Of a stretch of 52,775 nt of DNA, positions 47,809 to 51,351 are shown one piece after another (within the stretch, counting starts at the first letter, position 1; each line of letters opens with the position of its first letter). This stretch comes from Thermoplasmatota archaeon (GTDB lineage Archaea > Thermoplasmatota > JAKEGO01): the NCBI GenBank assembly GCA_028279595.1, contig JANQNK010000009.1, forward strand, positions 1 to 52,775, read 5' to 3'. The position numbers and the translations under genes are program-made. The notes under the pieces were generated by a model. The model saw only the letters and a program-made list of their open reading frames with translations, did no database searches and was not told the origin of the DNA.

Positions 47809-47880
47809 AGCCCCGTGGTGTAGCGGTTATCATGGGAGACTCTGGATCTCTCGACACCAGTTCGAATCTGGTCGGGGCTG
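47809..47880 (+). tRNA. tRNA-Gln(CUG), intronless, CCA not encoded in register
   Basis: Acceptor AGCCCCG/CGGGGCT (A1-U72), anticodon arm GGAGA-CT CTG GA-TCTCT, T arm ACCAG-TTCGAAT-CTGGT, discriminator G. Confidence 0.96.
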
Positions 47881-47906
47881 TCCATTCTTATCAACCACTT
47901 AGTGAA

Positions 47907-47951
47907 GACAGCCCCGACATCCAGTAATTTGCATGCAGCCCAGATTCGAAC
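47907..47951 (-). repeat. Inverted copy of the tRNA 3' end, interrupted by 22 nt
   Basis: GACAGCCCCGAC (47907-47918) + CAGATTCGAAC (47941-47951) is the exact reverse complement of 47860-47882. Confidence 0.8.
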
Positions 47952-47952
47952 G

Positions 47953-48149
47953 AGGGTGAGATGAGTTCAGAGCAATATGTTCCATCTCACCCGAAGCCGG
48001 ACGATTAAGAAGGAAGAAACCTGCAAGATTTACGTCCGGAAGTTAAAATCCGTAATTAATCAAGGGTGAACCGCTTTCCAGGTCTGCGATCGGTTCACCC
48101 GAAGCCAGGCGCTTAAGAATGAATTGATCTGATGGATTAACGCCAGGAA
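47953..48149. repeat. Two tandem copies of a structured double-stem motif (~88 nt each)
   Basis: Units 47954-48041 and 48064-48149: 10-bp hairpin + GAAG + 7-bp stem, with compensatory changes. Confidence 0.85.
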
Positions 48150-48186
48150 ATCGTTATCCCTTCCACCCCTAAATCATCCGTGTCGT

Positions 48187-48229: not shown

Positions 48230-49609
48230 ATGAAGACCATAATCGAACCCTTCAGGATCAAGATGGTCGAGCCAATGAAGATGACCTCCCGCGAAGAGCG
48301 GGCCAAGCTGATCGAGGAAGCGAGGTACAACCTGTTCTTCCTCAAGGCCAGGGACGTCATGATCGATCTGCTGACGGACAGCGGGACGAGCGCGATGAGC
48401 TCGGACCAGTGGTCCGCGGTCATGCGCGGCGACGAGGCCTACGCCGGGAGCGAGTCCTACTTCAGGTTCGAACAGGCGGTCAGGGACATCTACGGCTTCG
48501 AGCATATCATTCCTACTCACCAGGGCCGTGCTGCGGAGAAGATCCTCTTCTCGAACCTGTGCAAGGACGGCGACGTCGTTCCGAACAACACCCACTTCGA
48601 CACCACCCGGGCGAACGTGGAGTACACCGGCGCAGAGGCCCGGGACCTCGTCATCCCGGAGGGGAGGGTGCCGTCCGAGATACATCCGTTCAAGGGAAAC
48701 ATGGACATCGACGCCCTGCAGAGGACGATCGACGAGGTCGGTGTGGACAACATACCGCTTATCATGCTCACGATAACCAACAATTCGGGGGGAGGCCAGC
48801 CGGTCTCGATGGAGAACATCCGGATGGTGAGCGAGATCGCACATTCGAATGGGATCCCGTTCTTCCTCGACGCTTGCAGGTTCGCTGAGAACGCATACTT
48901 CATCAAGCTGAGGGAGGACGGTTACTCCGACGTCAGCATGATGGACATCGCCAACGAGATCTTCTCCTACGCGGACGGCTGCACCATGAGCGCAAAGAAG
49001 GACGGCCTCGCGAACATGGGAGGATTCCTGGCATTGAACGACGCGGAACTTGCGGAGAGCTGCCGCCACCTTTTGATCCTGACCGAGGGATTCACCACCT
49101 ACGGGGGCATGGCGGGCCGGGACCTGGATGCGGTCGCGACAGGTCTGAGGGAGGTCCTGAGCGAGGACTACCTCAAGTACAGGATAAGCTCGACGGACTA
49201 CCTCGGCCGGAAGATCTCCGAGAACGGGGTACCGATCATGCAGCCGCCGGGCGGACACGCCATCTACATCGACGCCAAGGCGATGCTGCCTCGCATACCT
49301 CCACTTCAGTATCCCGCCCAGGCCCTCGCGGTGGAGCTCTACATCGAGGCCGGCATCAGGGCCGTCGAGATAGGTACCGCGATGTTCGGGAAGTACGACC
49401 CGGAGACCGGCGAGGAGACCGCCGCCCCCATGGAGCTGCTTAGACTCGCAATACCGAGGAGGGTCTACACCCAGAGCCAGATCGAGTACGTCATCGAGGC
49501 CATCCTCAACGTCATGGAGAGGAAGGATTCGATCGTGGGTCTGAAGATGGTAAAGCAGGCGCCGTTCCTCCGCCACTTCACGGCGGAGTATGAGCCGCTA
49601 TCGGACTGA
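48230..49609 (+). CDS. tnaA: Tryptophanase (beta-eliminating PLP lyase; tyrosine phenol-lyase less likely)
   Basis: [23 protein letters not shown] (PLP Lys), [13 protein letters not shown] (Trpase-like; TPL has ERG here), RLAIPRRVY. Confidence 0.88.

Positions 49610-49677: not shown

Positions 49678-51351
<1,674 letters not shown>

Follow-up and report, generated by a model that had tools for sequence, protein, structure and literature searches.

A bacterial-type glutaminyl-tRNA synthetase beside a G73 tRNA-Gln(CUG) and its putative take-over of glutamine charging in Thermoplasmatota

The tRNA-Gln(CUG)-glnS locus

The window, meaning the whole stretch of 52,775 nucleotides analysed here, is part of a metagenome-assembled Thermoplasmatota genome (G000; 86% complete, 0.2% contamination). 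It contains a single tRNA gene, tRNA-Gln(CUG), called at 47809-47880 of the plus strand by both ARAGORN and Rfam (57.9 bits). On the same strand, 1.8 kb downstream, lies glnS, the gene of a bacterial-type glutaminyl-tRNA synthetase (GlnRS), with a tryptophanase gene in between (Table 1).

Table 1. Features of the tRNA-Gln(CUG)-glnS locus, numbered from the first nucleotide of the window
Feature	Position	Strand	Remarks
tRNA-Gln(CUG), archaeal scaffold	47809..47880	+	72 nt; A1-U72, G2-C71, C3-G70, C32/G37/A38; glnS-linked sequence type
D-loop of tRNA-Gln(CUG)	47822..47829	+	8 nt; 1 nt below the 9-nt loop of glnS-free phylum members
Discriminator G73	47880	+	A73 is the norm of the phylum
Trailer with split antisense copy of the tRNA 3' end	47907..47951 (47907-47918 and 47940-47951)	+	Antisense copy spans N73
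Two 55-nt hairpin-motif copies in the trailer	47987..48149	+	75% alike
Tryptophanase-family gene	48230..49609	+	Between tRNA-Gln(CUG) and glnS
glnS, bacterial-type glutaminyl-tRNA synthetase	49678..51351	+	Intact, 557 aa, GC3 0.86 (host-like)
Codon of Asn236 (E. coli Asp235 position)	50383..50385	+	Same residue as in the E. coli variant PDB 1QRS

The acceptor stem comprises seven base pairs, including A1-U72, G2-C71 and C3-G70, and is followed by an unpaired G at 47880, the discriminator N73. The archaeal-style tRNA-Gln body with A1-U72 and G as N73, described in a first-pass annotation of this DNA, is seen directly in the sequence. An alternative reading, in which the TCCA 3' of the tRNA would be an encoded CCA end and the discriminator would move, was rejected, since the identical gene in G001 has TCAC there. 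G73 is regarded as real because the same 72-nt gene is found in G001, which belongs to another genus of the same family; a sequencing error is unlikely, with the same base in G001 and the complementary C in the antisense copy of the trailer.

With G73, a weak 1-72 pair, G2-C71, G10 and Y34-U35-G36, the tRNA carries the glutamine identity set of E. coli (PMC9976931), the 1-72 pair being A-U, not U-A. The E. coli identity elements G3-C70, A37 and U38 are absent, their places being taken by C3-G70, G37 and A38. Regarding the features of a GatDE substrate, A1-U72 is present, whereas A73 is absent. The only other tRNA-Gln found in the host genome, tRNA-Gln(UUG) on contig C18, does have A73, and so does tRNA-Glu. 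CAA, about 15% of the glutamine codons in a crude ORF count, is read by tRNA-Gln(UUG) only. Unless the assembly misses genes, the single GlnRS would charge one G73 and one A73 tRNA in this genome.

The trailer behind tRNA-Gln(CUG) and its hairpin motif gave no match in Rfam. The antisense copy is also conserved in both G001 and G098, and in every case it matches N73 of its host, mirroring A73 in G098. Antisense trailers are found behind 20 of the 45 tRNA genes of the host genome (shuffled mean 0.9). Such elements have the antisense copy, which always matches its host tRNA, at 20-30 nt past the gene, together with hairpins; at 80-210 nt many of them also repeat the tRNA end in direct orientation. 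They are seen at window positions 47881-48150, on contigs C1, C2, C4, C7, C9, C10, C11, C14, C18 and C19 of the host genome, in G001 and G002 (two sampled order-mates of G000) and in loci of family f16. Since the other trailer-bearing tRNAs of the host genome keep their normal N73, the trailers probably did not create G73. Contig C18 of the host genome also holds a 1113-aa ORF (L249:27-3368) with tandem repeats that, judged by eye, are Hcp-like (type VI secretion tube).

The glutaminyl-tRNA synthetase and its relatives

The window GlnRS scores above the cut-off of profile TIGR00440 (721.8 against 425.8) and below that of TIGR00463, the archaeal GluRS profile (357.1 against 401.75). It has the same domain layout as the E. 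coli enzyme (PDB codes 1GTR and 1QTQ; P. aeruginosa 5BNZ; TIGR00440), with no N- or C-terminal appendix. The HIGH and MSKR motifs, the catalytic and glutamine-pocket residues, the loop reading G36 (Arg402), the contacts to U35 and C34 and the unpairing loop (Leu136) are all retained, with residue roles taken from PMC2978374.

The closest protein relative of the window enzyme is from a Thermoplasmata archaeon. In a tree of archaeal and bacterial rows, which took in no eukaryotic rows and identifies no single donor, the 59 Thermoplasmatota-type rows form one clade (SH-aLRT 100) amid bacterial enzymes and separate from the Heimdallarchaeia clade, the window GlnRS grouping with the family f16 enzymes (support 97). 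Within the phylum the presence of glnS is patchy, with 15 changes on the EF-2 tree. Because vertical descent was not rejected by AU tests of families f1+f2, f16 and f35 (p 0.19-0.47), one ancient gain followed by many losses is still as possible as repeated transfer. Transfer of glnS from archaeon to archaeon is not supported by these tests.

Five alignment columns distinguish the Thermoplasmatota-type clade from the bacterial enzymes, among them the column of E. coli Asp235, with Asn in 54/59 members of the clade and in 6/46 bacteria. Asp235 of E. coli GlnRS contacts G3-C70, and the E. coli D235N variant (PDB 1QRS), which carries the same Asn that occurs naturally here, reportedly shows relaxed discrimination at base pair 3-70. 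Such a relaxation would fit the archaeal C3-G70; its effect in an archaeal background is putative, and adaptation of Asn235 to C3-G70 is considered a lead only. As a strict partner of C3-G70 Asn235 fails in bacteria; Asp235 is kept alongside C3-G70 tRNAs in five archaeal enzymes and in Acidobacteria. The differences from E. coli are, taken together, the archaeal host, A1-U72, C3-G70 and C32/G37/A38 in the tRNA, Asn at the Asp235 position of the enzyme and A73 in the sister isoacceptor.

In bacteria, residue 235 and N73 are correlated. Of 32 genomes with Asp, Asn or Ala there, 31 have a G73 tRNA-Gln, and all 9 with Val, His, Ser or Pro have A73, counts that cover few independent lineages and many genomes which may also carry GatCAB. 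By this pattern, A73 does not bar bacterial GlnRS in general. With Asp or Asn at 235 in the Thermoplasmatota enzymes, the pattern also suggests that the tRNA-Gln of the donor may have had G73. Inside the archaeal clade no GlnRS column follows N73. Bacterial tRNA-Gln can have A1-U72 as well, as observed in G313 and G342 (via L058 and L106): a Terriglobales CUG tRNA has the acceptor features of the window tRNA, and both tRNA-Gln of Coraliomargarita combine A1-U72 with A73.

GlnRS in Heimdallarchaeia has been mentioned in passing (bioRxiv 10.1101/2024.07.04.601786). It is likewise a bacterial-type enzyme in archaea, and its gene adjoins tRNA-Gln in two of three loci (L088, L091, L103). Unlike the window enzyme, it belongs to a separate clade with Val or Ile at 235, five of six tRNA-Gln have A73, and gatE is kept. 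Its acquisition is regarded as separate from that in Thermoplasmatota, and the combination of Val or Ile at 235 with mostly A73 fits the bacterial pattern.

Distribution of G73, short D-loops and GatDE

Among 301 Thermoplasmatota genomes, glnS is present in 59 from 13 families (57 genes over the cut-off and two partial ones, in G161 and G285). Archaeal-type tRNA-Gln with G73 occurs in 37/59 genomes with glnS and in 17/242 without, as counted after removal of bacterial-type and false matches, with G189 set aside and by a pattern search that misses intron-bearing or unusual tRNA genes. A73 as the usual archaeal state, which the first-pass annotation had named, is borne out in the phylum by the latter figure, and G73 is not equally common in relatives with and without glnS. 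By family the proportions are 9/13 and 5/35 (p=5e-4). Family f14, in which glnS-bearing and glnS-free genomes intermingle on the EF-2 tree, has G73 in 22/22 and 1/12 of them, respectively, and five genomes of this family have two sets of tRNA-Gln, one with G73 and short D-loop flanking glnS and one with A73 and long D-loop elsewhere, together with gatDE. Independent pairs on the EF-2 tree give 7.7 in the same direction and 0.5 in the opposite one, with a median p of 0.02 that is optimistic and favours the association, as the subsample omitted the glnS-free G73 family f34.

In most glnS genomes the distance between glnS and a tRNA-Gln(CUG) is at most 2.6 kb. The 47 linked genes have G (27) or A (20) as N73, with at least six changes on the GlnRS tree. 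In f16 the linked tRNA has A73 and gatDE is kept; in G304, a single-contig chromosome in which gatE was not found, glnS lies between two A73 tRNA-Gln genes, one for each isoacceptor. G73 is also found in the tRNA-Gln of four glnS-free families (f34, f36, f29 and f4), which rely on GatDE. As far as gene sequences tell, G73 is neither needed by GlnRS nor exclusive to glnS genomes, and a strict requirement was rejected on account of A73 in tRNA-Gln(UUG) of the host genome, in G304 and in 20/47 linked tRNAs and of G73 in 17/242 glnS-free genomes. The earlier proposal that the acceptor end had been remodelled for GlnRS holds in so far as G73 is enriched with glnS; as an obligatory change it does not. 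G73 may have been selected for GlnRS.

Shortening of the D-loop tracks glnS more tightly than G73 does. It is found in 39/59 genomes with glnS, including both tRNA-Gln genes of the host genome, and in 4/242 without, the D-loop of glnS-free phylum members being 9 nt long. Of these four exceptions, three are <82% complete and three are closely related to glnS carriers. Bacterial tRNA-Gln in the GlnRS-bearing genomes checked is nearly always 71-72 nt long. The glnS-linked tRNA-Gln(CUG) genes cluster by sequence away from the unlinked ones (3 changes against 16.8 when shuffled).

Several smaller variations were noticed in these tRNA genes. Some glnS-type tRNA-Gln (G204, G216, G222 and G243 of f14; also G189 and G022) have G1 opposite U72, so that the A1-U72 pair that GatDE reads is gone and the first pair is still weak. 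Beside glnS, A73, long-D tRNA-Gln-like genes with an abnormal anticodon loop are found at L024:1343-1415 (G158), L134:5323-5395 (G005) and L091:6538-6612; they are either decaying old copies or conserved non-decoding RNAs. At f14 and f16 glnS loci (L004, L006, L007, L024, L033) tRNA-Glu often follows directly after glnS, resulting in a cluster of Gln and Glu tRNAs.

The host genome encodes one GlnRS and one archaeal-type GluRS. In its 86% complete assembly gatD, gatE, gatB, any GatB/GatE N-terminal domain, any amidase and gatCAB were not found. It does encode AsnRS and glutamine synthetase, so the organism could live without amidotransferases. The hand-over of glutamine coding to GlnRS claimed in the first-pass annotation agrees with these gene contents, as gatD and gatE were not found in G001 and G002 either. 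In the whole survey gatE was not found in 22/59 glnS genomes and 5/242 others, and, one genome apart, gatD is absent wherever gatE is. Both are missing from G000, G001, G002, all four f35 genomes, G088 and 13 f14 genomes; since gatD and gatE sit on different contigs in several relatives, their joint absence points to loss. Tested by independent pairs, the association of glnS with gatE loss was not significant (median p 0.22), despite the skew of these genome counts. A column signature in GluRS separating gatE-less from gatDE-only genomes was not found either, the largest difference being 0.47 and the 95% level of the shuffled null 0.56.

A putative hand-over from GatDE to GlnRS and its alternatives

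Judged by the residues retained, tRNA-Gln(CUG) is most likely charged directly by GlnRS. The explanation preferred here, which is considered fairly probable, is that an acquired GlnRS took over glutamine charging and that the tRNA then moved toward the bacterial form, with G73 being optional. A bacterial-type GlnRS would have entered Thermoplasmatota once, long ago, and would have been kept beside the archaeal tRNA-Gln(CUG) gene. With the presumed loss of GatDE in the G000 lineage it would have become the sole route to Gln-tRNA. The enzyme would read the anticodon, use its retained Leu136-type loop to open the weak A1-U72 pair, and tolerate C3-G70, probably aided by Asn at 235. Later the tRNA would have approached the form of the bacterial partners by a shorter D-loop and a change from A73 to G73. 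GlnRS of E. coli reads G73 indirectly, through stabilisation of the folded-back 3' end by the 2-amino group of this base; G73 probably speeds charging by favouring this conformation, which GlnRS needs, and would be optional. A gain in rate would explain the repeated A-to-G changes without G73 being essential. On the best reading of the gene contents and sequences the hand-over from GatDE to GlnRS appears real, and G73 would be an optional tuning, not its key.

A broader proposition is conceivable though somewhat doubtful, namely that several archaeal lineages have fully swapped non-discriminating (ND) GluRS and GatDE for GlnRS in a stepwise and repeatable manner, with relaxation by Asn235, then the short D-loop and G73, loss of GatDE and a GluRS that now avoids tRNA-Gln. 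If true, this stepwise replacement would mean that the change from indirect to direct glutamine coding is being replayed in living organisms.

The preference for G73 with glnS could also reflect drift after release from GatDE, with G73 and the short D-loop free to change and GlnRS indifferent to A or G. The D-loop is indeed read by GatDE (PMC9499178), A73 suffices in G304 and for the UUG tRNA of the host genome, and among glnS genomes G73 is found in 20/21 without both gatD and gatE, as compared to about half of those keeping them. Drift is nevertheless unlikely, as G73 is fixed on the tRNAs flanking glnS even where gatDE and an A73 set are kept, the direction of change is toward the bacterial state, and GatDE does not forbid G73, which it works with in f34 and f36. 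Alternatively, G73 and perhaps the short D-loop might be anti-determinants against the archaeal non-discriminating GluRS, whose Glu-tRNA-Gln would be beyond repair without GatDE; the tRNA would then have departed from GluRS instead of approaching GlnRS. This is distinctly improbable: in the GatDE-only families f34, f36, f29 and f4 G73 tRNA-Gln must still be glutamylated, and A73 tRNA-Gln persists without gatE in G000 and G304. It would be consistent with the archaeal-type GluRS that remains, with A73 in tRNA-Glu of the host genome and with the GluRS columns, none of which separates gatE-less from gatDE-only genomes beyond the shuffled null, so that discrimination may sit in the tRNA.

An origin of G73 without functional meaning, either via the trailer element or by hitchhiking with a transferred tRNA-glnS cassette, is very improbable. 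The antisense copy spans N73, and the linked tRNA-Gln(CUG) genes are a sequence cluster of their own; against this, other trailer-bearing tRNAs keep a normal N73, the G098 trailer mirrors A73, the G73 tRNAs of f14 have no such trailer, N73 switched at least six times within the linked type, and vertical descent was not rejected. An artefactual origin of the locus, through a sequencing error or a bacterial contig in a metagenome assembly, can be considered refuted. The contig starts with an archaeal 23S rRNA, contamination is low, GC and GC3 are host-like, all 59 archaeal GlnRS fall into a single clade, G001 has the identical tRNA, and the linkage recurs in dozens of genomes.

Reviews from 2008 to 2022 describe archaea as being without GlnRS and propose the archaeal tRNA-Gln, including A73, as a barrier (PMC2330236, PMC2978374, PMC9499178, PMC8762117), PMC8762117 with the wording 'almost all archaea'; the E. 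coli and yeast enzymes are unable to charge archaeal tRNA-Gln (PMC2330236, PMC2978374, PMC9499178). GlnRS is found here in about a fifth of the sampled Thermoplasmatota genomes, many of them without GatDE. No paper analysing the Thermoplasmatota GlnRS system was found in the literature searched, most subscription journals lying outside it. The barrier idea becomes testable on substrates that occur naturally with A73 or G73 and with long or short D-loops, and on enzymes with Asn or Asp at 235; G000 itself offers two substrates of a single enzyme, one with G73 and one with A73. The question is raised how the archaeal GluRS avoids mischarging tRNA-Gln, and the archaeal GlnRS/tRNA pairs may serve code engineering. 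A comparable displacement of an amidotransferase route by a direct synthetase is the acquisition of archaeal AsnRS in place of GatCAB (PMC9499178). In that case, however, tRNA-Asn already had compatible identity elements, whereas tRNA-Gln has been held to be an absolute barrier.

With the route via ND-GluRS and GatDE, as in Methanothermobacter thermautotrophicus (PMC2978374, PMC9499178), the window system shares the A1-U72 scaffold and the archaeal-type GluRS. It departs from that route in that gatD and gatE were not found in G000, in having G as N73 and in a D-loop shorter than that of relatives with GatDE only. Several other genomes hold a second gatD-gatE pair, which is divergent and whose two genes are divergently transcribed (L130 in G204:C55; G014:C13, G158:C3, G225:C1, G249:C71, G119:C1, G016:C144). 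This pair adjoins tRNA-Gln(CUG) in G204 and G016 and looks like either a further mobile module for glutamine charging or a GatDE of changed role.
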